Below are positions 5,896 through 41,069 of a stretch of DNA of 43,442 nucleotides, piece after piece. Source of the stretch: a virus (Duplodnaviria; Caudoviricetes); IMG/VR virus record IMGVR_UViG_3300042988_000536, positions 1-43,442 of that record; one strand, given 5' to 3'. The position numbers were made by a program, and so were the translations under genes. The notes beneath the pieces are model-generated. The model did no database searches and was not told the DNA's origin. It was given only the letters and a program-made list of their open reading frames with translations. How positions within the stretch are numbered: position 1 is the first letter of the stretch; the number at the start of each line of letters is the position of its first letter.

Positions 5896-5922
5896 TTTCA
5901 CGATGATCCTTAGGAGATGACC

Positions 5923-10535: not shown

Positions 10536-11029
10536 TCGTCAACGGGGAGTTGCTTCTAGCAAAGGCACCAATCGTTGGCATGCTGCGCGAGAAGGTGCGG
10601 CACAATGGCGTCAGTCACGGCCTGACTGAGGCCGGTTACGACATCCGGATCAAGCAGGCCGTCGACTTTCGTGTCAGCCAAGACCCGATGATCGGGAGCA
10701 GGGTGACCGTCGACGGAAGTCACGTCGGCCAGCGGTTTTGCATCGCGTCGACCGTCGAAGAGTTCATCATGCCGCACGATCTGGTCGGCGTGGTGCATGA
10801 CAAGTCGACGTGGGCGCGGCGCGGCCTGTCGGTGTTCAACACCGTGATCGAGCCCGGCTGGAGAGGGTTCCTGACCCTCGAACTGGTCTACCATGGCCAT
10901 CGGCCCCTTTACATCCCTGCGGGAACCGGGATCGCGCAGGTGCTTTTCCACCGGACGGAGCTTTATGCTTCGTACGATGGGAAGTACCAGTACCAGCCCG
11001 ACATGCCGGTGGAGGCGAAAGATGGCTGA
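10532..11029 (+). CDS. dcd: dCTP deaminase (trimeric dUTPase superfamily)
   Basis: AGYDIR, KSTWARRG, VIEPGWRGFLTLEL, IAQVLF, YDGKYQ; GTG start coupled to upstream stop. Confidence 0.88.
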   Translation: MIVNGELLLAKAPIVGMLREKVRHNGVSHGLTEAGYDIRIKQAVDFRVSQDPMIGSRVTVDGSHVGQRFCIASTVEEFIMPHDLVGVVHDKSTWARRGLSVFNTVIEPGWRGFLTLELVYHGHRPLYIPAGTGIAQVLFHRTELYASYDGKYQYQPDMPVEAKDG

Positions 11030-11213
11030 CAAGCCCGAAGGGCCGATCTGGATCGACATGGCGCAGGATATGTTCGACAACCTGACCATGCGGGAGCTTC
11101 TGCACGTCGCCAACCTTGCGCTGAACCGCCTGACCTTTCGCGACATCGGTGAAATCTTTGGCGAGATCGGCAAGACGCCGCGCCTTGAAATGAAGGAGAA
11201 AGACGATGGTTGA
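11022..11213 (+). CDS. Hypothetical protein
   Basis: GGAGG RBS. Confidence 0.6.
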   Translation: MADKPEGPIWIDMAQDMFDNLTMRELLHVANLALNRLTFRDIGEIFGEIGKTPRLEMKEKDDG

Positions 11214-11262
11214 GGTGATCTCCGCGATCCTGATCATCTGCGTGATATGGTGGCTGAATTGA
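11206..11262 (+). CDS. 18-aa hydrophobic peptide (MVEVISAILIICVIWWLN)
   Basis: AAGGAG RBS; stop overlaps TTG of next ORF. Confidence 0.4.
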   Translation: MVEVISAILIICVIWWLN

Positions 11263-11579
11263 GCATTTTTGGCTATCAGGAGGAGAGCGCGGTTGTTGAC
11301 CACTATGCGCAACTGCGCCGCGTTCTCGAACAGGCGCTGGATCAGGCGAGAAGCGGCAAGGGCGCGGAGAGGCACGCGCGCGGGCAACCGTTCGAGCGTC
11401 AACCGATGATGGAGATCAGCCGGATGATCGGTGGCCCGGCTGGTTGCCTGTACCAAGTCATGAAGAAGACGCAGGAGGCCAGCCGCATGGATACCGATGC
11501 GGCAAAGCGCGAAATCTTGGGGGCCATCAACTACCTCGCTGGGGCTTACCTGCTGCTGGAAGAGCGGGAGCAGAACTGA
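11259..11579 (+). CDS. All-helical phage protein (possibly MazG-like NTP pyrophosphohydrolase fold)
   Basis: GKGAERHA...KKTQEA...REILGAINY; start uncertain. Confidence 0.6.
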   Translation: MSIFGYQEESAVVDHYAQLRRVLEQALDQARSGKGAERHARGQPFERQPMMEISRMIGGPAGCLYQVMKKTQEASRMDTDAAKREILGAINYLAGAYLLLEEREQN

Positions 11580-11617
11580 TAGGATCGCTCCCAGCTTGAC
11601 CCACAAGGGAATGACCG

Positions 11618-13948
11618 ATGCCCCTCGTACCCGGCCTGAACCCCGCCGTCCGACTTGAGGATGATCCTGAAAACGCCGCCATCAGCCCGCTGGACGTGAC
11701 GGTCGAAGACGCCGGTGATGAGCCTGACATCCCTGAGTTCGATCAGGACGGCGCGGTGCTCCGCATCGACCATGGGGATGGGTCCATCACCGTCAGCCTA
11801 GACGGAAAGCCGATCTCGGAAGCCGAAGAGGAGGGCGATAAGGGCTGGTTCGCCAACCTCGTCGACGAGATCGATGACGATGAGCTTGGCCGGATCGCGG
11901 ATGATCTCCTCCGTGGCGTCGACGATGACCTGATGTCGCGCAAGGAGTGGATCGAGGACCGTGCGCAGGGCGTGAAACTTCTGGGCCTGAAGATCGAAGC
12001 CCCCGGCCTGACCGGATCGGCCGACGGCGCGCCCGTGGAGGGGATGTCCAAGGTTCGCCACCCTCTGCTTCAGGAGGCGGTCCTGCGCTTCCAAGCGAAC
12101 GCCCGGTCGGAAATGCTGCCGACAGACGGGCCGGTCAAGATCAGGGACGACGGCTTCGGCGCGACGTTCGACAAGGATCAGCTTGCGGATGGGTTCGAGA
12201 AGGACTTCAACCACTATCTGACCTCGACCGCGACGGAGTACTACCCCGACACTGACCGCATGTTCCTGATGCTCGGTTTCGGTGGATCGGCCTTCAAGAA
12301 GGTCTACTTCTGCCCCCTGCGGAACCGGCCGGTGTCCGAGAGCGTCGATGCCGAAGACCTGATCGTCAACAACTCCGCGACCGATCTGCGGAACGCCAAG
12401 CGCGTCACGCATCGTGTCTACATGAAGCCGTCGACCGTGAAGCGCCTGCAAATCCTCGGCGTCTATCGCGACGTCGAACTGGCAACTCCGCACGCTCCGT
12501 CACCGGACAGCGTGCAGGAGGCCAAGGCCGCCCAGCAGGGCGTTTCGACCCAGTCCATGAACCCCGATGATCGGGATCGCGAGCTCTACGAGGTCTACTG
12601 CGAACTGGACGTGAAGGGGTTCGAGCACAAGCACAAGGGCAAGCCGTCCGGCCTCGAAATCCCCTACCGGGTCACCATCGACGTCTCGTCCCGCGAAATC
12701 TTGAGCATCGTACGGAACTACGACGAGGAGACGAAGGAGCTTCCGGAGGCGCGCACGACCTTCGTCAAGTACACCTTCGTGCCGGGCTTCGGCTTCTACG
12801 ACATCGGCCTGCTGCACATCCTCGGCAACACCACGAACGCCGTCACGGCCGCGTGGCGGGAGCTTCTGGACGCGGGGATGTACGCCAACTTCCCCGGCTT
12901 CCTGATCAGCGACAGCGGGTCGCGGCAGAACACCAACGTGTTCCGCATCCCGCCCGGCGGCGCGTCTCAGGTGAAGACCGGAGGCTTGCCGATCAATCAG
13001 GCGGTCATGCCGCTTCCCTACAAGGAGCCGTCGCAGGCTCTCATGGCGCTGACCGAGAACATCGCGGCCACGGGCATGCGCGTGGGCGGTACGTCCGAGC
13101 TTCAGGTGGGCGAGGGCAGGCCCGACGCGCCGGTCGGCACCACACTGGCCATGATCGAGCAGGCCACGAAAATCCTGAACAGCGTCCACAAGCGGATGCA
13201 CGCGGCGCAGGCCGAGGAGTTCCGGCTGCTGCGCGAGTGCTTCAAGGAGCACCCGGAGAGCTTCTGGGAGCGGAACCGTCGCCCGACGGTGCAGTGGAAC
13301 CCCGATCTGCTGATGCGCGCGCTGGAGGATGTCGAGCTCGTCCCGCAGGCCGACCCGAACACGTCCAGCCACGCGCAGCGCGTGATGAAGATCATGGCCC
13401 TGAAACAGCTGCAGGCTGCAAACCCCGGACTGTACGATGAGGTCGCCATCGACACGGCGGCGCTGCGCGCCATCGGCTGGTCCAACCCGGAGCAGTTCTT
13501 CAAGCCGGAGGCCGCGCGCAACCAGCCGCCGCCGGAGATGCTGAAGGGCATCGAGGAGATCAAGATCGCCCATCAGGAGGCTGATGCGAAGACCATGACG
13601 GCGCAGGCCGCCATGCTCAAGGCGCAGCAGCCGAACGCCCCGGCCGCCGGGCCGCAGGGTCCGCAAGGTCCGCACCCCGTCGAACTGCAGGCCAAGCTGC
13701 TGTCCGAGCAGAACAAGGCCAAGCAGCTGGACATGTCCTTCCAGCGGGACCAGATGAACGACCAGAACCGCGATCTGGACCGGGAGAAAGACCTCCGACT
13801 GGAGCAGATGCGGATGGATCGGGACCAGATGAACGACGCGGTCAGGATGCAGCATGAGATGGACATGCAGGATCGTGACCATCATTCTGACATCGTGAAG
13901 CTGGCCATGCAGGTTCAGGCTCAGAAGAAGCGTGAAGGGGCGAAGTGA
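11618..13948 (+). CDS. Portal protein (P22-like, long C-terminal coiled coil)
   Basis: 776 aa downstream of terL; HPLLQEAVLRFQA, GSAFKKVYF, PGFGFYDIGL, TTLAMIEQ; Q/M-rich barrel-like tail. Confidence 0.9.
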   Translation: MPLVPGLNPAVRLEDDPENAAISPLDVTVEDAGDEPDIPEFDQDGAVLRIDHGDGSITVSLDGKPISEAEEEGDKGWFANLVDEIDDDELGRIADDLLRGVDDDLMSRKEWIEDRAQGVKLLGLKIEAPGLTGSADGAPVEGMSKVRHPLLQEAVLRFQANARSEMLPTDGPVKIRDDGFGATFDKDQLADGFEKDFNHYLTSTATEYYPDTDRMFLMLGFGGSAFKKVYFCPLRNRPVSESVDAEDLIVNNSATDLRNAKRVTHRVYMKPSTVKRLQILGVYRDVELATPHAPSPDSVQEAKAAQQGVSTQSMNPDDRDRELYEVYCELDVKGFEHKHKGKPSGLEIPYRVTIDVSSREILSIVRNYDEETKELPEARTTFVKYTFVPGFGFYDIGLLHILGNTTNAVTAAWRELLDAGMYANFPGFLISDSGSRQNTNVFRIPPGGASQVKTGGLPINQAVMPLPYKEPSQALMALTENIAATGMRVGGTSELQVGEGRPDAPVGTTLAMIEQATKILNSVHKRMHAAQAEEFRLLRECFKEHPESFWERNRRPTVQWNPDLLMRALEDVELVPQADPNTSSHAQRVMKIMALKQLQAANPGLYDEVAIDTAALRAIGWSNPEQFFKPEAARNQPPPEMLKGIEEIKIAHQEADAKTMTAQAAMLKAQQPNAPAAGPQGPQGPHPVELQAKLLSEQNKAKQLDMSFQRDQMNDQNRDLDREKDLRLEQMRMDRDQMNDAVRMQHEMDMQDRDHHSDIVKLAMQVQAQKKREGAK

Positions 13949-16900
13949 TGGACGAAAAAGCGATCCGGGCCGCGAAGCTCACGCTGGGCGGAATGCTCGA
14001 AAAGCGGCGAGCCTCTGAGGCCAAGGATCGCGCGGGCGGCCAGATCGCCCCGTCCAAGTACCTGCCCAACGTCCCCCGTCAGGCGCATGCCTACGGCGGC
14101 TACGTCCCGCAGGCTGGCCTGCCGACCCCACGACTGGCGGTGGCTCAGCCCCTCTCGGCACCGTCCGCTCCCAGCGCCGCCCAGACGCTCGCGGCAATCG
14201 CGTCACTGGGCGAGACCGCCCAAGGTCTCTTCGGCGATAAGGAGGCCAAGCCTGCAGCCGATCCGAGCGCGGGTCACCACGCTGGCGACGGTCACGATCA
14301 CGGATCGCCCAGCGCCGACCGTGGCGGCATGTCCGAGGCGGCGCTCTCCGCGTGGGGGAGGCTGACCGACGCCTATGGCCAGCCCCTGACGGTCACCTCG
14401 GCCTACCGCGATCCCAAGCGGAACGAGCAGGTCGGCGGCGCGAACAACAGCCAGCACATGCACGGCAACGCTTACGACGTCGACGTGTCGCATTTGTCTT
14501 ATGAGGACCGCATCGCCCTCGCCGATCAGGCTTGGGCGGCGGGCTTCCGTGGCATCGGCTTCTACGACAATTCCATGCACTTCGACGTCGCCGACCCGCG
14601 CGCGTGGGGGCCGTCGTACAGCAGTGACAGCATCCCTGACTGGGCCGCCGACTGGACGGCTCAGCGCTATGGGTACGCCGACGGCGGCGAGGTGACCGAT
14701 CTGGGGCAGGTCCGGCAACAGAAACAGCTGGAGGGCTTTCACGGCAGCCTGATGGGTGACATCGAGCAGCGTGTGAGCCACGCCATGGAGGCGCACCAGA
14801 AGGCCGTCGATGCTGGCGTGTTCGATGGGTATGAGCTTGGCGACGTCCTGCAGGGCAGTGCGCACCCCATGCGGATCACCGGCAGGTTCATGCGACTGTG
14901 GAAGCCCACGCCCATGACCCTGCAGGGCTTCGACCGGATGGGTGCCAAGCCCACCATCATCGAGCACGAGGGCAAGCAATACATTCCGATGCTGAGATAC
15001 GAGACCGGCGTCGAAGATCAGGACGGCTTTCAGCGCGGCGATGCGTACCTCGATGGCATCAAGGCCGCTGGCTACCAGAAGATGGGTGGCCTGCGCGCCG
15101 TGAAGGCTGACGGCGGATCGGTGGGGATCGGCGGCATCGAGGCGTACCACGGCAGCCCCCATGACTTCGACCGGTTCGACATCGGCAGGATCGGCACCGG
15201 AGAGGGCGCGGCCGCTTTCGGTCACGGCCTGTACTTCGCTGGCGACGAGAACATCGCGCGGTACTATCGAGACCGGATCAACCTGAACCAGAACAAGTTC
15301 GACATCGTGGATCGCCAGACCGGCAAGCCGATCCCTGAGGACGCGCCCGGATACCCCAAGGTCAAGGACTTCATGAACGCATATGCCTACGACCTGAAGG
15401 CGGGCGACATCGCCCACAAGAAGGGGTGGTGGGCTGCGCAAATTCCGCACACTGAGCGCCAGATGAAGGAGTATCAGGACTACGCCGCCTCGACCGGAAA
15501 TCCTGACATGTTCAAGGACGAGATCGAGCAGATGAGGGCCGACCTTGCCCATTATAAGGCCGCGCCCGCTCTGGTGGACCGCGTCAAGGCGGTCCCGCGT
15601 GGCCACATGTACAAGGTCAATCTGGGCGTCGGTGAGCACGAACTGCTGGACTGGGACAAGAAGCTGGGAGAACAGCACCCAGAGGTTCAGAGGAAGCTGC
15701 GCGACGTCCTGAAGCCGACCGACGATGCAGACTGGGCGAACTGGCTGAACTCCGGTGTCCCGCGCACCTATCGCGTCATGGGCTGGCCTGATGCGGCATC
15801 CAAGGAACTGTACGAGGCTGGCATCAAGGGTATCCGCTACCTCGATGCAAATTCTCGCGGCTCCGGAAGAAACAGCTATAACTACGTCATGTTCCACCAC
15901 GATCCGGTGTCGGTTGTGAAGAAATACGCCTACGGCGGATCGGTCGATGGCGGCGCTGTCCCGCAGAAGACCGTGAAGGCTTACAAGCTGTTCCGCACCA
16001 AGGGTGACGGCAATCTGTACCCGCTGTTCGTCAACGCCGACAAACCTGTCCCCATTGGAGAGTGGCTTGAGGCCGAAGAGGGGCCGCAAGGCAAGGCGCA
16101 GGGCAAGGTCAAGTCCAAGCTCGGCGATCTCGCATACCGCCCCGGCTGGCACGCTGGCGATTTGCCCGTCGCAACCCATATCGGTGGCAAGTCCGACCCC
16201 AGCCTGAAGAAGCCCGACTACCGGCCGGACAACCACGTCTGGGCCGAGGTCGAGATGGCGGCTGACAAGGACTGGCAGTCGGTGGCTGACAGACGTGGCA
16301 AAGGCGCAAAGGCCCACATCACCGACCAAGTGCCGCTGGGTGGGTTCTATCGGTACAAGACCAACCCGAACATGACCGGGAACTGGCTGATTGGGGGCAA
16401 CATGAAGGTCAACCGCGTGCTGTCCGACGATGAGGTCAAAGCCATCAACGACGCCGCCGGCACGGCCGACCTGCCGCGCCTGCCGCGCGGCGCGTTTGCA
16501 GCTGGCGGCGCGGCCATGTTCGAGGGCATCCACGAAGACCTGCAGGACGAACAGGGCAACCCACTGGAACTCTGGCACGGCACGCCGGAGCCGCATGAGT
16601 TCGAGGCGTTCGACGACAAGAAGCTGGGCTCAGCGCGAGATTACGGCTTCTACGGGCGCGGCCACTACCTGACGCCGGACGCCGAAGCCGCATCGGAGTA
16701 CGCTGGCTCCCACTCGGAAGAGGGTACCTTGATGGGTCCGCTGCATGCCGCCCTGAAGAACCCGTACATCTGGGACACGTCCAGCGAAAACGCTGCGCAC
16801 CGCACCCTCAGAGACCTGCAATCCATGGGGGTCATGAAGGGCCAGTCGAAGCTGGAAAGCTGGGACAACCTGCAGCGCCACCATATCGATCCGTTCATGC

Positions 16901-17118
16901 AGGAGATGCGTCGGCGCGGTCACGACGGTGTCGTCGTTCGTACGCAGGACTATGGCGGCGACCGACCGCACCGCGTGTCCGAGGTGGTGGTGTTCAAGCC
17001 CACGGCGATCAAGCACGCCGAGGCGGAGGTCTTCGACCCGACAGACCCGCGCATCCGCCGGTCGACGGGTGGTGCGGCGTACGATGCGGCTATGGCGGCG
17101 ATCCGGAGGAACAAATGA
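13945..17118 (+). CDS. Multi-module virion-cargo/polyvalent protein A: peptidase M15, unknown, ART-like, unknown, ART-like
   Basis: SAYR...SQHMHGNAYDV...MHFD (M15); AYHGSPHDFDRF...GHGLYFA and LWHGTP...GRGHYLT...HDGVV...EVVVF (ART-PolyVal-like); modules separated by xAxGG motifs. Confidence 0.8.
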   Translation: MMDEKAIRAAKLTLGGMLEKRRASEAKDRAGGQIAPSKYLPNVPRQAHAYGGYVPQAGLPTPRLAVAQPLSAPSAPSAAQTLAAIASLGETAQGLFGDKEAKPAADPSAGHHAGDGHDHGSPSADRGGMSEAALSAWGRLTDAYGQPLTVTSAYRDPKRNEQVGGANNSQHMHGNAYDVDVSHLSYEDRIALADQAWAAGFRGIGFYDNSMHFDVADPRAWGPSYSSDSIPDWAADWTAQRYGYADGGEVTDLGQVRQQKQLEGFHGSLMGDIEQRVSHAMEAHQKAVDAGVFDGYELGDVLQGSAHPMRITGRFMRLWKPTPMTLQGFDRMGAKPTIIEHEGKQYIPMLRYETGVEDQDGFQRGDAYLDGIKAAGYQKMGGLRAVKADGGSVGIGGIEAYHGSPHDFDRFDIGRIGTGEGAAAFGHGLYFAGDENIARYYRDRINLNQNKFDIVDRQTGKPIPEDAPGYPKVKDFMNAYAYDLKAGDIAHKKGWWAAQIPHTERQMKEYQDYAASTGNPDMFKDEIEQMRADLAHYKAAPALVDRVKAVPRGHMYKVNLGVGEHELLDWDKKLGEQHPEVQRKLRDVLKPTDDADWANWLNSGVPRTYRVMGWPDAASKELYEAGIKGIRYLDANSRGSGRNSYNYVMFHHDPVSVVKKYAYGGSVDGGAVPQKTVKAYKLFRTKGDGNLYPLFVNADKPVPIGEWLEAEEGPQGKAQGKVKSKLGDLAYRPGWHAGDLPVATHIGGKSDPSLKKPDYRPDNHVWAEVEMAADKDWQSVADRRGKGAKAHITDQVPLGGFYRYKTNPNMTGNWLIGGNMKVNRVLSDDEVKAINDAAGTADLPRLPRGAFAAGGAAMFEGIHEDLQDEQGNPLELWHGTPEPHEFEAFDDKKLGSARDYGFYGRGHYLTPDAEAASEYAGSHSEEGTLMGPLHAALKNPYIWDTSSENAAHRTLRDLQSMGVMKGQSKLESWDNLQRHHIDPFMQEMRRRGHDGVVVRTQDYGGDRPHRVSEVVVFKPTAIKHAEAEVFDPTDPRIRRSTGGAAYDAAMAAIRRNK

Positions 17119-19922
17119 ACCCGAAGACTGGTCTCTATTCCAAGGCGGCCGAGATCATCCGGTCCCTGCCGCAGGAGCGCGGCACTGCCGAGCAGATGAT
17201 CGCGGCAGCGAGAAAGATGGGCGTCAAGGACACCGAGCTCCAGAACGCCGGAGTTCTGCCGACCGGGAAGACCACGAGGGAGGAGCTTGCAGCGTTCTTT
17301 GACAGCAAGGTTCCGAAGGTCAGGGTTGACCAGTACGGCGAGAACCCAAGCTACCTGTCGCGAGACGAGAGCCAACGTCGCATCGCCCTGCAGAACCGGG
17401 TCTACAAAAACGACCCCCTATCCGATGAGGAGAAGGGCGACCTGAAGCGGCTGACGTATCGGTCCACATCCAGCCCCAGCGTCATCGAGGATGCTGAATA
17501 TGAGGCTCCGGCCGCGACCCGGTTTGAGAACTACCAGACGCGCGGCGGTGACAATTACCGCGAGCGCCTGCTGAAGTACGAGCGGCCTCCCCACCCGGCG
17601 CTGGCGGTCGACAGGCAGATCAAGTCCCTGATGCGCCAGATCGACTATGAGAGCCCGATCTACGGCAACGACCCGTCTCACCCAAAAATGCAGGAGCACT
17701 ACCAGAAGCTGTCCGACCTGCAGAACCAGATGGACAAGATCGTCGAGCAGCACGGGCCGCCCGCCGGATCGGGTCGCAGGTACCAGTCCTCTCACTGGGA
17801 CGAGCACCCGGATGTCCTCGCCCACATCCGCCTGAAGGATCGCGTTGTTGGACCGGCGAGCAGCTGGGAAAGCGCGAAGGAATGGGTTGTGCCGGTGGTC
17901 CAGAAGATCGCCGAACACATGGGTGCAGCCTCGGCCGAGCTTGGCTCCGGTGCTGCATCGTACGCTGTCAAGAACGGCCTGATCAGCCCAGAAGAGGCCG
18001 CTACGCTCAGCAAGATCAAGGGCTGGCGAAACGAGTACAGCGACAAGCCCGGCCTCGAAAAGCGCCTCCTGCACGTCGAGGAGGTCCAGTCCGACTGGGC
18101 GCAGGAGGGCCGCGACAAGGGGTTCAACACGGGCCAGAAGACACAGGAGTACCGCGACTACATCCAAGGGCTGAAACAGCGGTACCGGCAGAAGCTCAGC
18201 TGGATGGGTGACGACGCCGCTATCGACAAGCGCATGGACGACACCCTTTTGTCGGAAATGGCAATCTCGCTCGGAGAGAACGAGAAGCGACTGGAGCTCT
18301 CCCGCGCGCAGAACAACGAGATGACCGCGCCGCCGACCGGCCCGTACGTCCAGAACACGCAGCACTGGACCGATCTGGCCCTGAAGAACGTCCTGCGCGA
18401 GGCAGCGCTGGGCAACTATGACGGGATCGTCTTCACCCCCGGTCAGGCGCAGGCTGACCGGTATGGCCTGGAGAAGCAGGTGGATAGCATCTCGTACCAC
18501 CCAGCGTCACGCAAGCTCACAGCCTTCAAGGACAACAAGCCAATCATCGCCAAGCCGGACGTCAGCCCGGAGGATGTTCGCGGCCTGATCGGGAAAGACC
18601 TGTCCGAACGCCTTCTGCACCCGGACAACGCCACCGATCTGGGCGGCGGCGACATGTTCCACAGCCTGACAGGTGACGACCTGAAGATGGGCGGCGAGGG
18701 CATGAAGGGCTATTACGACAACATTCTGCCCAAAAGCGTCATGCGACTGGCGCAGCAGCACGATCCCAGCGTCAAGCCGGGCGAGCCCGTCGACATTGGT
18801 GAGGGGTATCAGGGCTTCCACCTGCCGATGACGGACCAACTGAAGCAAAGCATCACCGACAAGGGCTTTCCCGCCTTCAAGCGGGGCGGTCGTGTCGGCT
18901 ATGCACAAGGAGGAACCCCAGATGACCAAAATGCCGGAGCATATCTTGCAGCACCAGCCGCGCAGGGAGCAATTCCAGACGCAGGACGAGTACGAGGAGG
19001 CTCTGGCCTTCTTCAAACACAGGACGAGGCACCTCTTGAAGGTCTCCCAGCGTCCGCCCGCATCCCGCTCACAGGGCAAGTGATCCAAGCTGGTCCTGAC
19101 CCACGCATCCGCGCTGTGGCCCGGTCCTACATGGCCAGCGCAGGCATGCCTTACAATCCGCCGACCAAGTACGCAAAGGTCGATCCGGCGCGGGCAAAGC
19201 GCATTGCTGCAGCCTACGACGAGATGGAGGATAACCCTGAACACCCGCTGACGCGCGCCTCGTATGCCGAAATGATCAAGGAGACGTTGGCGCAATACGA
19301 GGCGGCAAAAGCGGCTGGCTTCAAGGCGGAGTTCTGGCACCCCCGGAAGCAAAAAGACCCGTACGAAGCATCTCCTAGACTTGCTGTAGAAGATGTTCGC
19401 AACAATAACCATATGTGGGTCTATCCTACCTATGCGGGATATGGCAGCGGCGACCCAATCTCGGAAGAAGATGCCCGGCGCAATCCGATGCTGCAGCTGA
19501 CGGGAGAGAATTGGAACGGCATCCCGGTGACCGTTAACGACATATTCCGTGCTGTTCACGACTATTTCGGGCATGCAAAGGAGGGTGTCGGCTTCCGCCA
19601 CGATGGAGAGGAAAACGCATGGCGGTCACACGCCTCCATGTACTCCCCGCTGGCCCGGATGGCCATGACCAGCGAGACCCGTGGCCAAAACAGCTGGCTT
19701 AATTTCGGCCCGCATGGTGAGAAAAACCGCACCGCCCGCACCGAAGACACGGAGTTTGCCCCTCAAAAGGTCGGCATCCTGCCCCACTGGGTCCACCATG
19801 AGGGTGCGGAAGACTTCATGCTGCCAAACGACATTTCCGGCATGCTGGATGCTAGAGCCAAGCACAGTGTCGACATCGACAAAGCGCTGTCTCTTACGCG
19901 CCGCTTCACCGGCGGCTGGTGA
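17115..19922 (+). CDS. Multi-module virion-cargo protein B: EEVQSDW-type module plus HDxxGH zincin-like module
   Basis: GLYS..., SHW...LAHIR, LHVEEVQSDW, GMKGYYD; then FKRGG/YAQGG; then RAVHDYFGH...GEENAW. Confidence 0.8.
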   Translation: MNPKTGLYSKAAEIIRSLPQERGTAEQMIAAARKMGVKDTELQNAGVLPTGKTTREELAAFFDSKVPKVRVDQYGENPSYLSRDESQRRIALQNRVYKNDPLSDEEKGDLKRLTYRSTSSPSVIEDAEYEAPAATRFENYQTRGGDNYRERLLKYERPPHPALAVDRQIKSLMRQIDYESPIYGNDPSHPKMQEHYQKLSDLQNQMDKIVEQHGPPAGSGRRYQSSHWDEHPDVLAHIRLKDRVVGPASSWESAKEWVVPVVQKIAEHMGAASAELGSGAASYAVKNGLISPEEAATLSKIKGWRNEYSDKPGLEKRLLHVEEVQSDWAQEGRDKGFNTGQKTQEYRDYIQGLKQRYRQKLSWMGDDAAIDKRMDDTLLSEMAISLGENEKRLELSRAQNNEMTAPPTGPYVQNTQHWTDLALKNVLREAALGNYDGIVFTPGQAQADRYGLEKQVDSISYHPASRKLTAFKDNKPIIAKPDVSPEDVRGLIGKDLSERLLHPDNATDLGGGDMFHSLTGDDLKMGGEGMKGYYDNILPKSVMRLAQQHDPSVKPGEPVDIGEGYQGFHLPMTDQLKQSITDKGFPAFKRGGRVGYAQGGTPDDQNAGAYLAAPAAQGAIPDAGRVRGGSGLLQTQDEAPLEGLPASARIPLTGQVIQAGPDPRIRAVARSYMASAGMPYNPPTKYAKVDPARAKRIAAAYDEMEDNPEHPLTRASYAEMIKETLAQYEAAKAAGFKAEFWHPRKQKDPYEASPRLAVEDVRNNNHMWVYPTYAGYGSGDPISEEDARRNPMLQLTGENWNGIPVTVNDIFRAVHDYFGHAKEGVGFRHDGEENAWRSHASMYSPLARMAMTSETRGQNSWLNFGPHGEKNRTARTEDTEFAPQKVGILPHWVHHEGAEDFMLPNDISGMLDARAKHSVDIDKALSLTRRFTGGW
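18922..19083 (+). CDS. Nested out-of-frame 53-aa protein inside cargo protein B
   Basis: AAGGAGG at 18907-18913, 8 nt before ATG; +1 frame; helical-looking PRREQFQTQDEYEEALAFFKHR while the host frame reads as linker. Confidence 0.55.
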   Translation: MTKMPEHILQHQPRREQFQTQDEYEEALAFFKHRTRHLLKVSQRPPASRSQGK

Positions 19923-19961
19923 CCTGATATGCTCCGCCGCACCGAGTGAAAGGGGATAGGC

Positions 19962-22673
19962 ATGGCCGACACCGTCAAGAAGGCTCTCGATCTGGTTTCG
20001 GGATACCAAGACCCGGCCCACCCGAAGATGAAGGGGTGGGACTGGCGTCCCCTCGATCAGGTGCGGGATGACCTCGGCGGCCTTCCGGAAATCCCCAGTC
20101 ACGTCGAAAAGTTCGGCTCGTTCATGGATGAGACCGCGCGCCGGGCTGCAACCACCGGCCTGACGCCGCGCGACCTGATCAAGGCATATGTGATCACGCG
20201 CGCGTCCATTCAGCGCCGGGCGCAGACCGCCGACAGGGTGCGATCCGCTGGACTGCAGCTTCCTCCGGGCGCGCAGGGCATGATCCGGCCGGAAGGCGCG
20301 ATGGGAGAGTGGCTCCACAGCCCGATGGGGCAGCGATACCTCGATCAGGCGGAGCGCGGGAAGGTCGACGAGGAGGCTGTGGCGCACGCGCAGAGCGTGA
20401 TGAAGCCGTTCGGCCTGAACGCAGAGACCGACGCGCTGCCGTGGGCGGTCATGCACCTCGGCCCGCGACACAAAGAGGTCTCCGACATGGTCGGAAGAGC
20501 CCTGACCGGACGCTCCAGCCCGGAAGAGTGGCGAAATTTTGCGAAAGACCTGCGCGGGATCGGCACCGCGAAGGCCGGTTTTGTCGCATCCATGCTCGGC
20601 CGGGGCGATCAGCCCACTCTGGACGCCCGTCAGGTGATCCTTCAGACTGGAAGGCCGACCGCAGACGCCAAAAGTCCGATGAAAAGGGCCGGTTTTGCCG
20701 CCGTGGACCGTCTTGCGGCCCGTCAGGCGGCCCTGAACCCCAAAATGGACCCCGATCTGGAGCCCTTCCGGCAGCACCTGACCCACCACGCGATCTGGGA
20801 CAAGGCCGGGGACGAGGTTACGACCCATGACGACGTGGTCAGTGCCATGCGGCATGCCAAGGACGGCGGCCGGATCGGCTATGCGGACGGCGGATCGGTC
20901 GGCGAGCACCCTCTGGCCCGTCTTCTCTCACAGTTGGGCCTGCCGAACGCCGACATCGAGCATCCTGAGGTGCAGAAGGCGGTGGAGCGCATCAACTCTC
21001 CCCTTTCCGACGACCCTGAGAGGGTCCAGAAGGCGCTGAAGATCGCTTCGTCCCTCAAGACCAAGGTCGCGGGCGAGACCGGAACCGGAAGCTACTACAA
21101 CGTGAAGCAGCCTGTGGCCCCGGTCGACGTGAAATCCCAAATTGAGGACATCCCCGGCGTCAAGCCGCTTGAGCGCAACCCGATGGACTGGGAGCAGGTC
21201 TACCAGAAGATCAAGGGTGGCACCTTGATCAACGTCGGCGGGGACCGGTCCAACCTTGGACGCTTGACCCACGTCAATGGGAAGAAGCTGAACTGGCCGG
21301 TCGACCTGCACGCTGGTCCCAAGTACATGCTGGAGCCGAACCCCGGCGCGGTATGGGCGAACAGCGCGGCGCACACGACAGCCTTCAACAAGAAGATCAA
21401 GGAAGCCGCCAAGAAAGGCCCGGTCTACGGCATCTACAGCCCCATGGGGCCGCAGGCCGTGGATAGCTCGCACAACATGTTCGACGCGGTCATGGCACAG
21501 ATCGACAAGGGGTCAATCTCGAAAGAGGATGCCCGCGACTTCGATGACGCCCTGCGCACCGGCCTGCACATGGAGAAGAAGGATCGCGCGAACGGCGCGG
21601 TCGCCATGGAGAAGTGGCCGGGCATCCTGAACCCAAAGGAGGCTTCCGAGTTCGCCAAGAGCCTGCCGGGCAAGCACCGCGCGGGCGTCGTCAACATGAT
21701 GGACAAGAGCTACTGGCGCGACCGTGGTTTCCCGCATGTCGGCATGACCCGCGTGGCGATCACCGATCCGGACGTCCGAGATGTTCCGGGCAACATGCTG
21801 GGTCACCGCATCGTTGAGTTCGACCCTGACGCACACCGGGCAGAGGAGAGAGCATTCAGGCACTCCACCTACACCGACGCCTCCGCCGGAAAGTACGTTG
21901 CTGACGTGCCTCTCCTGCAGCGTCAGTACGTCATGCCTGACGTGACGGCGAGGCTGCTGCAGAAGCCCACGAAGGCCAGAGAGGTCGTTCACCCCTATTC
22001 CGAGGACGCCCTCGGCCGGTCAACTGCGCGCAAGATGTTCGAGGAGCAAAAGCAGGCACAGCCGGTCGACGAGCGCTGGATCGAGAGCGTCGGTCGCGGC
22101 GCTGAGCGCCAGAAGCGCTATGGCTTCATGGATGGCGGCGCGGTCGTCGCGCAACCCACCGATGCCCAGAAGAAGGCTGGCAACTACCGCAAGCACCATG
22201 TGAGCTTTCAGGGTCTCCCGGTGACCATCGAGACCGCGAAGGGGCAGACCCGATCTGGCGTGGACGACAAGGGCCAGAAATGGTCGGTCAGGCTGCCGTA
22301 CGACTATGGCTACATCAAGCGCACAGAGGGCGCGGACGGAGACCACGTCGACGTCTGCATCGGGCCGGATCACGAGAGCGACCACGTCTTCATCATCGAC
22401 CAGCACGATCATCGTACGGGACAGTTCGACGAGCACAAAGTCATGCTGGGATACCGCACCCGCGAGGATGCCACCCGCGCCTATCAGTCCGGCTTCTCGG
22501 ACGGCAAAGGTCCGGATCGGCAGCGCGCGGTGGCCCGCATGTCGATGAAGGAGTTCAAGCACTGGTTGAAGACGTGTGACACCACGAAGCCCGTACGCGG
22601 GCAGGGTCACATCGACCGTGCAATGGCCCTGACTTCGCGCTATAGTGCCAACCACGACCGGGACGCCGGGTAA
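19962..22673 (+). CDS. Multi-module virion-cargo protein C: HhH glycosylase-like, unknown, inorganic pyrophosphatase-like
   Basis: LRGIGTAKAGF...PTLDARQV (HhH plus Asp); PTDAQKKAGNYRK...YGYIKRTEGADGDHVDV...FDEHKVMLG (polyvalent-protein InPase). Confidence 0.8.
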   Translation: MADTVKKALDLVSGYQDPAHPKMKGWDWRPLDQVRDDLGGLPEIPSHVEKFGSFMDETARRAATTGLTPRDLIKAYVITRASIQRRAQTADRVRSAGLQLPPGAQGMIRPEGAMGEWLHSPMGQRYLDQAERGKVDEEAVAHAQSVMKPFGLNAETDALPWAVMHLGPRHKEVSDMVGRALTGRSSPEEWRNFAKDLRGIGTAKAGFVASMLGRGDQPTLDARQVILQTGRPTADAKSPMKRAGFAAVDRLAARQAALNPKMDPDLEPFRQHLTHHAIWDKAGDEVTTHDDVVSAMRHAKDGGRIGYADGGSVGEHPLARLLSQLGLPNADIEHPEVQKAVERINSPLSDDPERVQKALKIASSLKTKVAGETGTGSYYNVKQPVAPVDVKSQIEDIPGVKPLERNPMDWEQVYQKIKGGTLINVGGDRSNLGRLTHVNGKKLNWPVDLHAGPKYMLEPNPGAVWANSAAHTTAFNKKIKEAAKKGPVYGIYSPMGPQAVDSSHNMFDAVMAQIDKGSISKEDARDFDDALRTGLHMEKKDRANGAVAMEKWPGILNPKEASEFAKSLPGKHRAGVVNMMDKSYWRDRGFPHVGMTRVAITDPDVRDVPGNMLGHRIVEFDPDAHRAEERAFRHSTYTDASAGKYVADVPLLQRQYVMPDVTARLLQKPTKAREVVHPYSEDALGRSTARKMFEEQKQAQPVDERWIESVGRGAERQKRYGFMDGGAVVAQPTDAQKKAGNYRKHHVSFQGLPVTIETAKGQTRSGVDDKGQKWSVRLPYDYGYIKRTEGADGDHVDVCIGPDHESDHVFIIDQHDHRTGQFDEHKVMLGYRTREDATRAYQSGFSDGKGPDRQRAVARMSMKEFKHWLKTCDTTKPVRGQGHIDRAMALTSRYSANHDRDAG

Positions 22674-22691
22674 CCCTCCGAGGAGATCGAA

Positions 22692-23810
22692 ATGGACGCC
22701 AAAAGCCTGCGCGAGGCCATGAAGAGCAAGGCAAAGCGCCTTGCTGGTGCCTCGTCCGAGAAAGTCGACAGCTCTGACTTCACCCCCGCCGAGAGCTTGA
22801 ACACCGAGGTCAAGACCGGCATGCGCCCGATCTCGCGCCGGGCATTCAAGACTGGCGGCAAGGTCGAGGGCGAGGACAATGCGCCGCGCGCCGACCGCAA
22901 GCCCCGCATGAATGGCGGCAAGATCGGGCTGGCCAACACGGACCAGAAGGCGGCGAACGAAGAGCGCGACGGAAAGAAGCACGTCGGCGGCTTCAAAAAG
23001 GGCGGCGTCCCCCACAAGGCTGCTGGCGGCATGACCTCGTCTCCGCGCCCGATGAAGCGCCCGGACGATCTGATGGCGCAGGAAAAGCTGGACAGCGCCG
23101 CGCGCACCACCGAGAGCCCGTCGTCTCAGGTCCGCAGGCCGCTTTCCCGGCCCTCCGATGAGGAGATGAAGGCCCAGCAGATGCTGAACAGCGCGGCGCG
23201 CTCCGGCGATGGTTACAAGAAGGGTGGCCGCACCGCCAAGAAGGTCGGTGGCGCGACCGGCGGCTCCGACAGCGCGCCCGTCTCCACCGCCGGAAACGAC
23301 ACGGGCGGCCGCGAGGCCAAGAAGCGTGGCGGCGAGGTCGAGAAGCACGAGAAGGGCTGCGTCTGCAAGGCATGCGGCGGCGGCGTCAGTGACCGCATGG
23401 CGCGCAAGAGCGGTGGCCGCACCGGGAAGGGCAAGACCAACATCAACATCATCATCTCGCCCCACCACGATGGCGACATGGGCAACATGGGCAAGATGGG
23501 CGGCGGCCAGCCGCCGGCACCGCCCGCGATGATGCCGAAGCCCCCGATGCCTGCGCCCGCCGCGCCTGCACCGATGCCGCACCCCGGTGCGCTACCGCCC
23601 GGCCTCGGCGCGGCACTGGCTGGCGCGGCCGGGGCTCCGATGCCCGGACCCGGCCCGATGCCTCCGCATCCCGGCGGCGCGCCCATGCCCCCCATGCCCA
23701 TGGCGCGCAAGAGCGGCGGCAAGGTCTACCCGAAGATGCATTTTGGTGCGGGATCGGGTGAAGGACGCCTTGAAAAGAAAGAGAAGTACGGCAAGAATGC
23801 AGAGGCCTGA
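22692..23810 (+). CDS. Basic, low-complexity protein with about 10 xKxGG motifs (putative internal head protein)
   Basis: FKTGG, RMNGG, FKKGG, KAAGG, YKKGG, KKVGG, KKRGG, KACGG, RKSGG x2; Pro/Met-rich tail; GAGGAG RBS. Confidence 0.75.
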   Translation: MDAKSLREAMKSKAKRLAGASSEKVDSSDFTPAESLNTEVKTGMRPISRRAFKTGGKVEGEDNAPRADRKPRMNGGKIGLANTDQKAANEERDGKKHVGGFKKGGVPHKAAGGMTSSPRPMKRPDDLMAQEKLDSAARTTESPSSQVRRPLSRPSDEEMKAQQMLNSAARSGDGYKKGGRTAKKVGGATGGSDSAPVSTAGNDTGGREAKKRGGEVEKHEKGCVCKACGGGVSDRMARKSGGRTGKGKTNINIIISPHHDGDMGNMGKMGGGQPPAPPAMMPKPPMPAPAAPAPMPHPGALPPGLGAALAGAAGAPMPGPGPMPPHPGGAPMPPMPMARKSGGKVYPKMHFGAGSGEGRLEKKEKYGKNAEA

Positions 23811-23870
23811 CGTACCTCCCTCGTAATCAGGCAAGCGGCCCCCGGAAACCCTCCCTCATCCGGGGGCCGC
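23805..23870 (+). ncRNA. Tandem hairpins with CCUCCCU loops (cuckoo-sRNA-like)
   Basis: GCCTGA..TCAGGC stem with TACCTCCCT loop; 12-bp GCGGCCCCCGGA/TCCGGGGGCCGC stem with AACCCTCCCTCA loop. Confidence 0.45.
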
Positions 23871-24112: not shown

Positions 24113-24502
24113 ATGCCACACATGATGATGTCGCACGAGGAAGACCCCCGGAAGAAGCTGCTTGACGAGTTGGGGGACATCACCGGCGTTGAGCTCTTCC
24201 ACAATCAGGTGCTGCTGGCGGTCTACATCCGCCCCCAGAAGACGCGTTCCGGCCTCTACCTGACCGACAAGCACACCGACGAGGACCGCTTCCAGTCCAA
24301 GGTCGGCCTGATGGTCGCCAAGGGTCCGCAGGCTTTCGAGCAGGACGGCAACTGGTTTGACGGCCTGTCCTTCAAAGAGGGCGACTGGCTGGTCTTCCGC
24401 CCGTCGGACGGCTGGTCCATCACCGTCAACGGCGTGCTGTGCCGCATTTTCGACGACATCAACATCAAGGGTCGGGTGCCTCATCCCGACGCAGTCTGGT
24501 GA
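24113..24502 (+). CDS. GroES-like co-chaperonin
   Basis: NQVLL...KTRSGLYL...GLMVAKGPQAF...FKEGDWLVF...RIFDD. Confidence 0.8.
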   Translation: MPHMMMSHEEDPRKKLLDELGDITGVELFHNQVLLAVYIRPQKTRSGLYLTDKHTDEDRFQSKVGLMVAKGPQAFEQDGNWFDGLSFKEGDWLVFRPSDGWSITVNGVLCRIFDDINIKGRVPHPDAVW

Positions 24503-24513
24503 GGAGCGCAGAC

Positions 24514-25389
24514 ATGAGCGACGAAAACGACATCGAAGACAAGGAAAGCGAAATCATCGTCGAGGTCGACGGTGAGGAAGCCTCCGCAGGCGGTGCCGGC
24601 GAGCCGCGCGTCCCGTCGGTCGACGAGGCGATGAAGGAACTGAAGGTCCAGCTGGATCAAGAGCGCGCGCGCCGCGAGGAGCTTGAGCGGCAGAACCGGG
24701 AGCTTGCCCAGCGCGAGCACATCGCTCGATCCGAAAAGGACGACAGCGACATCCAGCTGGTCTCGAATGCCATCGACACCCTGTCCCGCGAGACCGAAAT
24801 CCTGAAGGCTGGCTATGCGCAGGCCATGCAGTCCGGCGACTTCCGCCGCGCCGCAGAAATTCAGGAGGAGATGGGCGGCAACGCGGCCAAGCTCCTGCAG
24901 CTGACCAACGGGCTTGAGGCCATGAAGGCCAAGCCCAAGACGCCCCCGCCGCAGCCGGTTCCCTCCGACCCGGTCGAGGCCTTTGCGCGCACCCTCTCGC
25001 CCCGATCCGCCGAGTGGGTTCGCGCCCATCCGGAGTTTGTTCGGGATGCGAACAAGAACCGCAAGATGATCGCCGCGCACGAACTGGCGGTCGCCGACGG
25101 CCATGCCCCCGACACCGACAGCTACTTCGCTGCGGTCGAGGAGACCCTGAAGATCAAGGCGCAACCCAAGGCCGCAGTCGCCGAAGAGGACGCGACCGGG
25201 GGCGCGGCGAAGGTCGTCCAGCGGAGGGATGCAGCACCTGCGGCCGCGCCCGTCAGCCGTGGGCAGCCGTCGCGGAACGTCGTGCGCCTGACGGCAGCAG
25301 AGCGCGAGATGGCTGAGATGATGAACATGAAACCCGAAGAGTACGCCAAGCACAAGGTGGCGCTCCAGAAGGAAGGGAAACTGCAATGA
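24514..25389 (+). CDS. Putative scaffolding protein
   Basis: Acidic N-terminus, coiled coil, C-terminal VRLTAAEREMAEMMNMKPEEYAK; position before capsid genes. Confidence 0.65.
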   Translation: MSDENDIEDKESEIIVEVDGEEASAGGAGEPRVPSVDEAMKELKVQLDQERARREELERQNRELAQREHIARSEKDDSDIQLVSNAIDTLSRETEILKAGYAQAMQSGDFRRAAEIQEEMGGNAAKLLQLTNGLEAMKAKPKTPPPQPVPSDPVEAFARTLSPRSAEWVRAHPEFVRDANKNRKMIAAHELAVADGHAPDTDSYFAAVEETLKIKAQPKAAVAEEDATGGAAKVVQRRDAAPAAAPVSRGQPSRNVVRLTAAEREMAEMMNMKPEEYAKHKVALQKEGKLQ

Positions 25390-25916: not shown

Positions 25917-26131
25917 TCAGGCAAGTTCGGATCATCAACAAGATCGAGCGCCTGAGGAAGGCTATACGGCGGGAGGGAACTCCCGCCGTTCAAGATGCGT
26001 GGGACAGCCTTGAGCCTCATGTCTCGATATTTCTGAGCGCGGGAGGGCGCGATGGAACTGAGCGAGAGAATGCAGAAGACGGCCGAGGGTCAGTTAACGT
26101 GGGCCGACCCGACCCTTGGAAAGACGTGTGA
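25913..26131 (+). CDS. Hypothetical protein
   Basis: ATGA coupling. Confidence 0.5.
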   Translation: MIRQVRIINKIERLRKAIRREGTPAVQDAWDSLEPHVSIFLSAGGRDGTERENAEDGRGSVNVGRPDPWKDV

Positions 26132-26790: not shown

Positions 26791-26794
26791 TGAT

Positions 26795-27511: not shown

Positions 27512-28423
27512 ATGGCTGTTAATCTTTCCGCCATCAAAGACCTTCTGCTCCCCGGCCTCCGTGGCGTTGAAGGCAAGTACGAGATGATCCCGTCTCAGTA
27601 CGACAAAATCTTCACGAAACACACGTCGAAGATGGCACTGGAACGCACCGCTGAGATGCGCTTCCTCGGCTTCGCTCAGCTGAAGACCGAGGGCGGCCAG
27701 ACCGCGTTTGACAACAACGCGGGCGAGCGGTTCGTCTACAACCAAGAGCACGTCGAGATCGGTCTGGGGTATGCGATCACGCGCAAGGCCATCGACGACA
27801 ACCTCTACAAAACGCAGTTCGCCCCGTCGAACCTCGGTCTGATCGAGAGCTTCCAGCAGACCAAGGAAATCTACGGTGCCAACCTGCTGAACACGGCGAC
27901 CGTCTACAACGGCGCAATCGGCGGCGACGGCGTGGCGCTCTGCTCCACCGCCCACCCCATCGACGGCGGCACCGTTGCCAACCGCCCGACCACGGACGTG
28001 GAACTGAACGAGGCCACCCTGCTCAACGGGATGATCTCGATCCGGACCAACTTCCGCGATCAGGCTGGCCTGAAGGTCTTCGCCCGTGGCCGCAAGCTGA
28101 TCGTACCGCCGCAGCTGGAGCCGGTCGCCATCCGCCTGACCAAGACGGAACTGCGCCCCGGCACCGCCGACAACGACGTCAACGCGATCATGTCGACCGC
28201 TGGCGGCCTGCCGGAAGGCTACATGGTGAACGACTTCTTCACCTCGGCCGCCAACTGGTTCCTGCTGACGAACATCGACGGCCTCTCCTACATGGAGCGC
28301 GTCAAGTTCGAGACCGACATGCAGGTCGACTTCGTGACGGACAACCTGCTGGTCAAGGGCTACGAGCGGTACTCCTTCGGGTACTACAACTGGCGCGCGA
28401 TCTGGGGCTCGTTCCCGTCGTAA
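27512..28423 (+). CDS. Major capsid protein
   Basis: LLLPGL, KTEGG, LGYAITRKAIDDNLY, KLIVPPQL, ERYSFGYYNWR; strong codon bias; followed by terminator. Confidence 0.9.
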   Translation: MAVNLSAIKDLLLPGLRGVEGKYEMIPSQYDKIFTKHTSKMALERTAEMRFLGFAQLKTEGGQTAFDNNAGERFVYNQEHVEIGLGYAITRKAIDDNLYKTQFAPSNLGLIESFQQTKEIYGANLLNTATVYNGAIGGDGVALCSTAHPIDGGTVANRPTTDVELNEATLLNGMISIRTNFRDQAGLKVFARGRKLIVPPQLEPVAIRLTKTELRPGTADNDVNAIMSTAGGLPEGYMVNDFFTSAANWFLLTNIDGLSYMERVKFETDMQVDFVTDNLLVKGYERYSFGYYNWRAIWGSFPS

Positions 28424-39676: not shown

Positions 39677-40570
39677 ATGGCTGAGGACGTTATCGAGACT
39701 GCTCTGCGCGCGGCGCGGGGCGGCAAGAAGAAGACCAAGACGCACCGGGGGCCGATCCACTCGACCGTCGCCGGTCGCACGGACCACCTGCCGATGCACG
39801 TCGCCTCTGGCTCCTACGTCATCCCCGCAGACATCATCTCCGCGATGGGCGAGGGGAACTCCATGGCTGGCTTCAAGGTCGCGAAGTCAATCTTCTCCAT
39901 CCCCGGACCCTATGGTCAGGGGGACGGCCTGCCGTACGGCGGCGGGGAGATGCCTTACGACCAGCCGTCGCCTAGGAAAAGAGCGAGCGGCGGCAGCACC
40001 CCGTCTGGCGGGAACCCTAAGGCCAGCGCCGCCATAGCCGCTGGAAACCAGCAGGTGGCCGCCAACAGGGCGGCCTCGGCCATGTACGCGCAGCAGGCCA
40101 ATGCGCGCGACGGGAGCCCCATTCCGTCGCACCTGCGCGGGTACGGCGGGGGGCAGGGCGGAGGCTCCGGGCCGTCGGTGCCGAGAGGCGGCACGGGCAG
40201 TTTTGGCCTACCCAATCCGGCTGGTGGCAGCATCTCCAGCGTCTTTGGTGTCCGTGGTCCTGCAGACTTCATCGACGGGGGCGGCCTCGGCGCATCTGGC
40301 GACAAGTTTCACGGCGGCCTGATCTCAGGTGCGATGAACCTTCTGGGAGTGACGCCCTACGCCCGATCCACCGGCGGCCGGGCTGAGGATCATGATGCTG
40401 TCCCTATCGTCGCGGCGGGCGGTGAGTACGTCATAGCGCCGGATGAGGTCGCTCATATTGGTGGCGGATCGCTCGATGACGGCCACAAAATCCTTGATGC
40501 CTTCGTGAAAAAGATGCGAAAAAAGACCATCAGAACCCTGCAATCACTGCCGGGGCCAAAGAAGGATTAG
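39677..40570 (+). CDS. Protein with duplicated D-x-[LV]-P...G-[SE]-YVI domain and xxxGG motifs
   Basis: GRTDHLPMHVASGSYVIPADII and HDAVPIVAAGGEYVIAPDEV; RASGG, RSTGG. Confidence 0.75.
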   Translation: MAEDVIETALRAARGGKKKTKTHRGPIHSTVAGRTDHLPMHVASGSYVIPADIISAMGEGNSMAGFKVAKSIFSIPGPYGQGDGLPYGGGEMPYDQPSPRKRASGGSTPSGGNPKASAAIAAGNQQVAANRAASAMYAQQANARDGSPIPSHLRGYGGGQGGGSGPSVPRGGTGSFGLPNPAGGSISSVFGVRGPADFIDGGGLGASGDKFHGGLISGAMNLLGVTPYARSTGGRAEDHDAVPIVAAGGEYVIAPDEVAHIGGGSLDDGHKILDAFVKKMRKKTIRTLQSLPGPKKD

Positions 40571-40574: not shown

Positions 40575-41069
40575 ATGGATGACGTGGTTGTTCGCATCGC
40601 TGTGGAGGAAGACTTCAACGGCCTCATGGACTTGTGTCTGTCCGCATGCGGCGAAAACGCCATGACAAAGCCCGACGTCGACAAGCTGGCCGTCGCGGTC
40701 TGGGGTGCTCTGATTAGGAAGACCGGCATCTGTGGCGTCATCGGCCACCTCGGTCAAAAACTGGAGGGAGGGGTGCTTCTGTCCATTGGGGAACTGTGGT
40801 ACAGCAAGGAACTGATCCTTGAGGAGAAGGCGATCTTCGTGGAACCCCAGTACCGCTCAGCGAAAGGTGGCAGGGCTCGCAAGCTGGCCGAGTTCGCGAA
40901 GGCCACTGCTGACAACCTGCAAATCCCGCTTGCTATCGGGGTTCTCTCGACAAATCGTACGGAAGCAAAAATTCGTCTCTATGAGCGTGTATTCGGCGCG
41001 CCAGCTGGTGTATATTTCCTCTACGGTGCAAAAACTGGCCTTTCTGAAGGCGCAGACGGAGGCTCCTGA
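40575..41069 (+). CDS. GNAT-family acetyltransferase-like protein
   Basis: VRIAVEEDF, IFVEPQYRS, RLYERVFG. Confidence 0.7.
   Translation: MDDVVVRIAVEEDFNGLMDLCLSACGENAMTKPDVDKLAVAVWGALIRKTGICGVIGHLGQKLEGGVLLSIGELWYSKELILEEKAIFVEPQYRSAKGGRARKLAEFAKATADNLQIPLAIGVLSTNRTEAKIRLYERVFGAPAGVYFLYGAKTGLSEGADGGS

Follow-up and report, generated by a model that had tools for sequence, protein, structure and literature searches.

The prohead proteases of tailed phages, such as T4 gp21 and phiKZ gp175, cut after Glu, and the proteases of adenovirus and African swine fever virus (ASFV), like the ubiquitin-like proteases, cut after Gly-Gly. In SPN3US, prohead-protease processing of an ejected head protein, gp245, has been described (PMC10052503). 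Phage polyvalent proteins are large mosaic proteins encoded beside head genes and carrying ART-PolyVal, InPase and peptidase domains; the available text on them draws a polyprotein analogy and invokes embedded peptidases, and in it no junction motif is described and the word "glycine" has 0 occurrences (Iyer et al. 2017, PMC5512222). The locus described here lies in IMG/VR record IMGVR_UViG_3300042988_000536, a 43,442-nucleotide stretch from a freshwater metagenome, the whole of which is called the window. Four open reading frames (ORFs), A (13945), B (17115), C (19962) and D (22692), are placed between the portal gene and a GroES-like gene with an inferred scaffold, and they are punctuated by the motif [K/R/Y/F]-[A/K]-x-G-G-x-[V/A/T/I]. 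On balance, the motif is a real and widespread code at module joints that is under selection, and its most likely function is that of a cleavage site.

ORF A (13945..17118, + strand, 1057 amino acids) was assigned as a polyvalent protein by Pfam, PHROGs and module comparison. A conserved N-cap (residues 1-48) is followed by an M15 peptidase (49-244), a region of unknown type (245-387), an ART-like module (388-661), a phrog_30118 stretch (662-851), ART-PolyVal (852-1039) and a helical C-cap (1040-1057), with motif sites at 14086, 14674, 15103, 15925, 16495 and 17059. Pfam recognized two stretches of ART-PolyVal (98.9 bits against a cut-off of 31.2) and the M15 peptidase with 60 bits. The latter (14089-14676) is one of two separate M15 peptidases in the window, the other being a probable endolysin at 35221-35880. 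ORF B (17115..19922, + strand, 935 amino acids; PHROGs and module comparison) starts with a composite module (1-588) that has neither family nor internal motif; a motif doublet at 18876/18900, the copies 8 amino acids apart, precedes a module with a phrog_3170 stretch (597-935) and a C-terminal helix cap. This second module (B2, 18903-19922) holds an H-D-x-x-x-H stretch that may resemble the HExxxH metallopeptidase variant of polyvalent proteins; the HExxH MPTase was not detected by Pfam in ORFs A-D.

ORF C (19962..22673, + strand, 903 amino acids; Pfam and module comparison) bears helix caps at both ends and comprises a module at 1-299, a doublet at 20856/20880, an unknown region (308-722), a motif at 22125 and an InPase (723-903; 167 bits in Pfam). 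Its first module (C1, 19962-20858) looked like an HhH-GPD/Ogg glycosylase (ESM Atlas 0.92, with a low recognition score), which is a lead only; if it were a glycosylase, a packaged repair or anti-defence enzyme would be possible. ORF D (22692..23810, + strand, 372 amino acids) is basic and of low complexity, has 9-11 motif copies and gave no family match in Pfam or PHROGs; its homologs are always multi-copy, the motif being present in 26 of 26. The ART-PolyVal, InPase and M15 peptidase domains of ORFs A and C bear out the polyvalent-type cargo proposed in the first-pass annotation of this DNA. Its further claim, that the modules between sites are all unrelated, is at odds with the two ART-PolyVal stretches of ORF A.

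In order to define the motif, a position-specific scoring matrix (PSSM) was derived from a mixture model of 1089 distinct Gly-Gly contexts in the cassette proteins of relatives, the window and the related record MW202675 being left out. The model showed K (23%), R (22%), Y (17%) or F (15%) at position -3, A (45%) or K (34%) at -2, and V (41%), A (21%), T (11%) or I (10%) at +3. Over the six frames of the window it gave 25 hits, of which 24 fell in the ORFs at 13945, 17115, 19962, 22692, 39677 and 41069; the remaining one was off-frame, inside the portal gene. ORFs A, B, C and D had 6, 1, 3 and 9 motifs, whereas shuffling gave means of 0.04-0.11 and, among 1000 shuffles, never more than 2; this comparison is not independent since the PSSM was trained on relatives of the same ORFs. 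All pentapeptides that the first-pass annotation had placed in ORFs A to C are present there, and its estimate of about 10 copies in ORF D compares with 11 among 17 Gly-Gly by its own pattern and 9 by the trained PSSM. The recurrence that it reported at 39980/40364 and 42092/42407/42641/42665 was found, with 42092 (as well as 18900) falling below the PSSM cut-off. The same loose pattern produced 7 extra hits in five other genes, all of them rejected by the PSSM.

The motif was then scored in held-out protein classes. It accounted for 272 of 1727 Gly-Gly in the homologs of ORF 39677 and two ejection proteins, versus 8 of 1918 in the 27 remaining classes. In the three positive classes it was carried by 65/65, 51/57 and 31/31 proteins. 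Among the other classes, the nozzle gave 1/732, the terminase 0/189 and the portal 5/359; only 5 of 71 portal homologs had a copy, 4 of them near the C-terminus, and the portal of the window has no in-frame motif. By PSSM, no copy was found in 3 major capsid protein (MCP) and 14 scaffold homologs, which are small samples, or in the MCP and scaffold of the window itself. The expected enrichment in virion over non-virion proteins was seen as a restriction by class, the dividing line running instead between predicted internal or ejected proteins and those of the shell, the tail and the non-structural set. As far as protein classes can be predicted, the motif is confined to head-internal and ejected proteins. 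A literature search including full text, with subscription journals outside its coverage, found no paper describing it.

The cassette sample consisted of 130 proteins from 69 loci, and breakpoints within 15 amino acids were tested on 68 dereplicated proteins. A BLAST breakpoint was found at 102 of 152 internal motif sites (30.3 expected), versus 40 of 235 other Gly-Gly (41.1 expected). This enrichment, with other Gly-Gly at chance, supports the swapping of cassettes at the motif that had been suggested from the window alone. Masked BLAST (194/334 vs 47.6) may itself create ends at motifs, and the unmasked and Gly-Gly-controlled tests were relied on. Modules of the window were found in other orders and in other proteins of relatives, with their ends at the motif. 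Division at the motifs yielded 309 modules in 93 clusters, the internal ones with a median length of 189 amino acids; Pfam names were ART-PolyVal, M15, InPase, GNAT, LPD23, lysozyme, GP88 and DUF7178, and most of the 78 modules scanned had no family. The stricter statement that every change of domain falls at a motif holds as an enrichment at breakpoints and fails in residues 1-588 of ORF B, where blocks shuffle without one. Of 183 aligned motif sites, 169 had kept the Gly-Gly pair, compared with 157 of 309 for other Gly-Gly. The codons of the motif varied while the peptide was kept, and the first Gly was depleted in GGA. Judged from these alignments, the motif is selected at the protein level.

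With their distinct conflict domains in one polypeptide and their mosaic shuffling, ORFs A-D would qualify as phage polyvalent proteins, and their relatives also carry LPD23, GNAT and lysozyme. Unlike the proteins in the available text of PMC5512222, they have a specific code at the joints and helix caps at the termini. A polyvalent protein has been found in virions of phi24B, and the accessible part of that preprint describes no such motif. Packaging and injection of ORFs A-D are inferred from the location of their genes, with portal and head genes on either side, and from the motif that they have in common with ejection proteins. The motif-directed cutting of head-packaged, ejected proteins by prohead proteases would be analogous to the cutting proposed here. 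In contrast to those systems, the capsid and scaffold proteins are free of the motif and the proteins scanned included no member of such a protease family. With the Gly-Gly proteases the locus shares the di-glycine in the site, whereas the mapped phage cut, in the tape measure protein T5 pb2, lies upstream of it and no such enzyme was found.

The cut in T5 pb2 was located after R1127 by proteomics and intact mass (Linares et al., PMC10038345). The peptide there, R-A-E-G-G, is the sole PSSM-positive site among 15 T5 late proteins and one of 3 [AK]xGG in 1219 amino acids; R-A-x-G-G is kept in 4/4 T5 relatives checked, with a low PSSM score in two. The cut precedes the Ala and so lies three residues upstream of the second Gly; it gives a fragment of 92 amino acids vs 88 if it were cut after Gly-Gly. 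The cleavage after Gly-Gly put forward earlier, on the analogy of adenovirus, ASFV and ubiquitin, thus disagrees with the sole mapped cut, and its register is probably wrong: by analogy with the T5 case only, the cut would be X↓A-x-G-G, after the first motif residue. In lambda gpH the motif occurs at F733 and Y778, the two copies flanking a domain with the signature GE[FY]V, and a cut at F733 would give 79.8 + 12.5 kDa. The removal of ~14 kDa from gpH is reported in the 2025 Ur-lambda paper, where, in the text available, the site and the catalyst are stated as unknown (PMC12617516). In JBD30, the GE[FY]V domain is called a "hook" and a cut at 1066 was predicted in silico only, according to the accessible text (PMC11445458). 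Tape-measure maturation is alike in the peptide at the T5 cut and in its register. It differs in that T5 and lambda have one cut in a tail protein, whereas the short-tailed phage described here has many sites, and these lie in proteins predicted to be head cargo. The T5 segment downstream of the cut aligned poorly with the domain of ORF 39677, and homology was not established.

A proven virion cargo is likewise punctuated by the motif, namely the crAss001 protein C1 gp45 (PF25725), with 9 [AK]xGG vs 0 in 12,339 amino acids of 16 other genes. Its resolved pieces are a portal-bound density (425-552) and a tail-barrel segment (214-245), about 420 Å apart (PMC10172136, in the text available). The former starts at the Ala (A425) of one motif copy and ends before the next (560), and the latter falls between copies 207 and 261. 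None of the four gp45 peptides named in the accessible main text spans a motif copy. Cutting would explain the pieces in capsid and tail more simply than an intact chain.

The motif stands at the joints between shuffled cargo modules, and we consider it probable that it acts as a maturation cleavage site. This reading builds on four results: the motif lies at swap points, it is restricted to proteins of the internal type, it is selected at the protein level and it matches the T5 cut in register. The polyproteins of the window are predicted to be packaged by entering the head via their terminal helices. Cutting, presumably at every copy and in the course of assembly, would take place between the first and second motif residue, [K/R/Y/F]↓[A/K]-x-G-G-x-V, and would yield enzymes of roughly 15-45 kDa (one of 66 kDa) to be ejected separately.

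The first-pass annotation had also taken the motif for a capsid-loading tag. This idea is weakened, and a pure or general capsid address is unlikely, because the motif is present in tape measures, which are tail proteins, and the crAss001 cargo proteins gp46/47/49/50 are packaged without it. An amphipathic helix was found at the N-terminus of 40/83 and at the C-terminus of 39/83 complete cassette proteins, against 2-3% expected for a pattern that was chosen after looking at the data. Such helices are also seen in ORF 39677 homologs, in an ejection protein and in the portal, again at the termini. They would be better candidates for a loading tag than the motif, and in ORF A a motif stands between each cap and the cargo, as might be expected of a removable tag. 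In the motif-poor phage CRP-902 (L086:36270-42406), several post-portal genes have nearly the same N-terminal start, which may be a different kind of loading tag, carried by cargo that is not fused.

Several points weigh against cleavage at the joints. Doublets 8 amino acids apart (51 cases), copies located 6-7 amino acids from C-termini and the presence of 9-11 copies in ORF D find no explanation in effector release. Only 150 of 315 breakpoints lie near a motif (≤15 amino acids), about half being motif-free. The residue before the cut (P1) would be unusually broad, including K, R, Y, F, H and M, and no known protease family co-occurs with the motif. The sole mapped cut belongs to T5, an unrelated siphovirus, and the uncultured phage studied here is known from its genes alone. 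The authors of PMC10172136 modelled gp45 as a continuous, intact chain bridging about 420 Å, and the available text describes no cleavage; the boundary at 425 was noted post hoc (~3% chance within 1 residue) and could be only the first ordered strand or a domain edge. The mass loss of lambda gpH also fits a Gly-rich stretch at 709-721. Finally, the relatives are not independent samples, and P-values overstate certainty.

Part of this evidence agrees with an uncut docking beta-hairpin, with its turn at x-Gly, that would bind the surface of the portal, the core or the GE[FY]V domain and provide avidity or ejection order, the T5 cut falling there only as a domain edge. This explanation keeps its weight because the doublets, the near-C-terminal copies and the many copies in ORF D agree with a docking hairpin no less than with redundant sites. 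The 8-residue periodicity, the copies at extreme C-termini and on some portals and the motif at the beginning of a domain in tape measures are in line with it, as is the binding of the motif-led crAss001 domain to the portal wing (PMC10172136, accessible text). It accounts poorly for the four crAss001 cargo proteins packaged without a motif, for the motif in tail-lumen proteins and for the exact T5 register match, and docking alone is judged rather unlikely. An improbable alternative is a different cut, made after Gly-Gly by a clan CE/JAB-type enzyme or by a host protease after injection. The invariant Gly-Gly and the established Gly-Gly-specific viral and ubiquitin-like proteases are consistent with it, and the title of Zweig and Cummings 1973 refers to the host being involved when a T5 tail protein is cleaved. 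However, the T5 cut lies upstream of Gly-Gly and is already present in purified tails according to the available text (PMC10038345), and no clan CE/JAB family was found in the 58 proteins scanned.

The motif could also be an evolutionary seam, that is, a flexible linker or a microhomology for in-frame recombination that has no reader. Such a seam would be found at swap points and would suit the bias of the Gly codons to GGC/GGT, but the peptide is kept while synonymous codons vary, it is restricted by protein class, and it recurs in three phages without cassette swapping, T5, lambda and crAss001; we regard this as very improbable. Least credible, with a probability close to nil, are internal Shine-Dalgarno sites that would start separate in-frame proteins. 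GGAGG does read Gly-Gly, and the downstream Val could be GTG, yet the first Gly is GGA in only 11 of 482 distinct sites (background 15%) and GTG occurs 45 times at +3 vs 102 for GTC and 71 for GTT. A Shine-Dalgarno relic was rejected on the depletion of GGA at the first Gly and the varied codons.

If the motif is a cleavage site, an enzyme has to read it. In agreement with the first-pass annotation, no canonical prohead protease was found among 58 proteins of the window and MW202675 (Pfam; PHROGs for 28), which represent a partial genome with some small genes unscanned, and Pfam gave no clan CE or JAB protease in the same 58. A SprT-like zincin (5917-6567) was rejected as the protease, being found only in the window and MW202675 and missing from those parts of four further motif-bearing phage genomes that were covered. 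The GroES-like gene and a gene for a 176-amino-acid protein were discarded as motif readers: both are also present in the motif-poor CRP-902 and are not diagnostic. A likeness to the GroES mobile loop was dropped, as the hydrophobic triplet is missing.

The leading candidate reader or catalyst, still unproven, is the GE[FY]V domain of ORF 39677 (39677..40570, + strand), which contains two copies of this unnamed domain, each beginning with the motif (39980 and 40364) and containing D...GE[FY]V. The second copy matched 1723 representatives (50% clustering). The domain was found in 6/6 motif-bearing genomes (two with weak E-values) and in 0/2 motif-poor ones (CRP-902 and QDWS535), several being only partly covered; it was found in no cassette protein. 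The copy of DSL-LC04 matched 279 phage records, with a tape-measure annotation in 57/60 of the matches listed. The tape measures of lambda, JBD30 and Douge match the GE[FY]V profile, which itself included lambda. Some mycobacteriophage tape measures (L172 Zaria; Douge, PDB 8zdo) have two motif-led GE[FY]V domains ~440 amino acids apart.

A compact homolog of the domain was modelled with a predicted local distance difference test (pLDDT) of 87, and fold searches gave no clear match to a peptidase or any other solved structure (best Z 3.1, best Foldseek E 0.78). The hits of a first model (pLDDT 59) were discarded as helical-hairpin noise. In copy 1 the Asp is kept (99%) and the Glu replaced, and in copy 2 the Glu is kept (100%) and the Asp mostly lost, the pattern expected of one composite site; such a site could be catalytic or bind the new N-terminus. 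A complex prediction for the two-copy domain and a motif doublet scored 0.02 and has no bearing either way. No significant similarity between the domain and gp45 425-552 came out of a profile comparison, and the ESM Atlas link to PF25725 (0.82) is a lead only. We propose tentatively, and as an unlikely case at present, that the GE[FY]V domain is a small protease of an undescribed kind, with a composite Asp/Glu site and X↓AxGG as its target. It would act in cis within the tape measures of siphoviruses and in trans, from ORF 39677, in short-tailed phages.

The other motif-bearing gene, ORF 41069 (41069..43442, + strand), runs past the window end and is a predicted ejection protein with Peptidase_S74 and SLT domains. 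The S74 domain (residues 277-325) is followed by the weak motif copy 42092 and by further copies at 42407, 42641 and 42665; the homolog in MW202675, annotated "internal virion protein D", has the same S74-then-motif layout. S74 domains are usually found on tail spikes and are known only as self-cleaving chaperone domains.

The phage is probably short-tailed, judging by its terminase, SU10-type portal and adaptors, MCP, nozzle-like protein and SLT-bearing ejection-type gene. The portal (11618..13948, + strand; Pfam and PHROGs) shares 83% identity with its MW202675 counterpart and 29-35% with those of the cultured Pelagibacter phages HTVC027P/HTVC023P, Roseobacter CRP-901/902, DSL-LC04, Caulobacter GB2A, Pag-Yong1 and Alcaligenes QDWS535. 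In cultured relatives, runs of tiny basic genes, many of them motif-bearing, occur near the portal or capsid instead of big polyproteins (L083:13690-16001; L087:1315-2752 and 7313-7918; L088:36298-37486). The GroES-like gene and the scaffold, inferred from position and composition, occupy 24113..25389 (+ strand); the former (24113-24502) directly precedes the inferred scaffold in 8/8 related phage genomes examined (annotation or phmmer). The conserved 176-amino-acid protein (25386-25916), between the scaffold and capsid genes, is present in at least 5 relatives and had no match in Pfam, PHROG, NCBIfam or PDB sequences. A ~900-bp gap (25917-26821) without a long ORF, which may hold a tRNA or structured RNA, comes before the capsid-associated genes, and the motif-free MCP lies at 27512..28423 (+ strand; PHROGs). 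PDB sequence searches with the MCP, the 176-amino-acid protein and ORF 39650 gave nothing useful. Two Logan contigs matching 11000-16899 and 16871-23845 showed zero differences, the run possibly being the own source of the window; no RNA dataset was listed among the Logan runs with its sequence, and contig joints were uninformative.

In short-tailed phages, folded enzymes have to be forced through a narrow portal. A universal code at the joints would make clear how effectors are added, swapped and delivered without redesign of the particle, and also why pieces of gp45 are found in the capsid of crAss001 as well as in its tail. For the annotation of uncharacterised effector domains, the motif defines the limits of the modules, and it is probably a signal for cutting that is shared widely. 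If the code is true, it makes single-residue predictions for lambda gpH, F733↓A734 and perhaps also Y778↓A779. If the GE[FY]V domain proved to be the protease, it would be the missing catalyst of lambda gpH and T5 pb2 maturation, a single gene would process an open-ended, swappable library of injected effectors, and one processing code would extend across lambda, T5, crAssviruses and abundant aquatic podophages.

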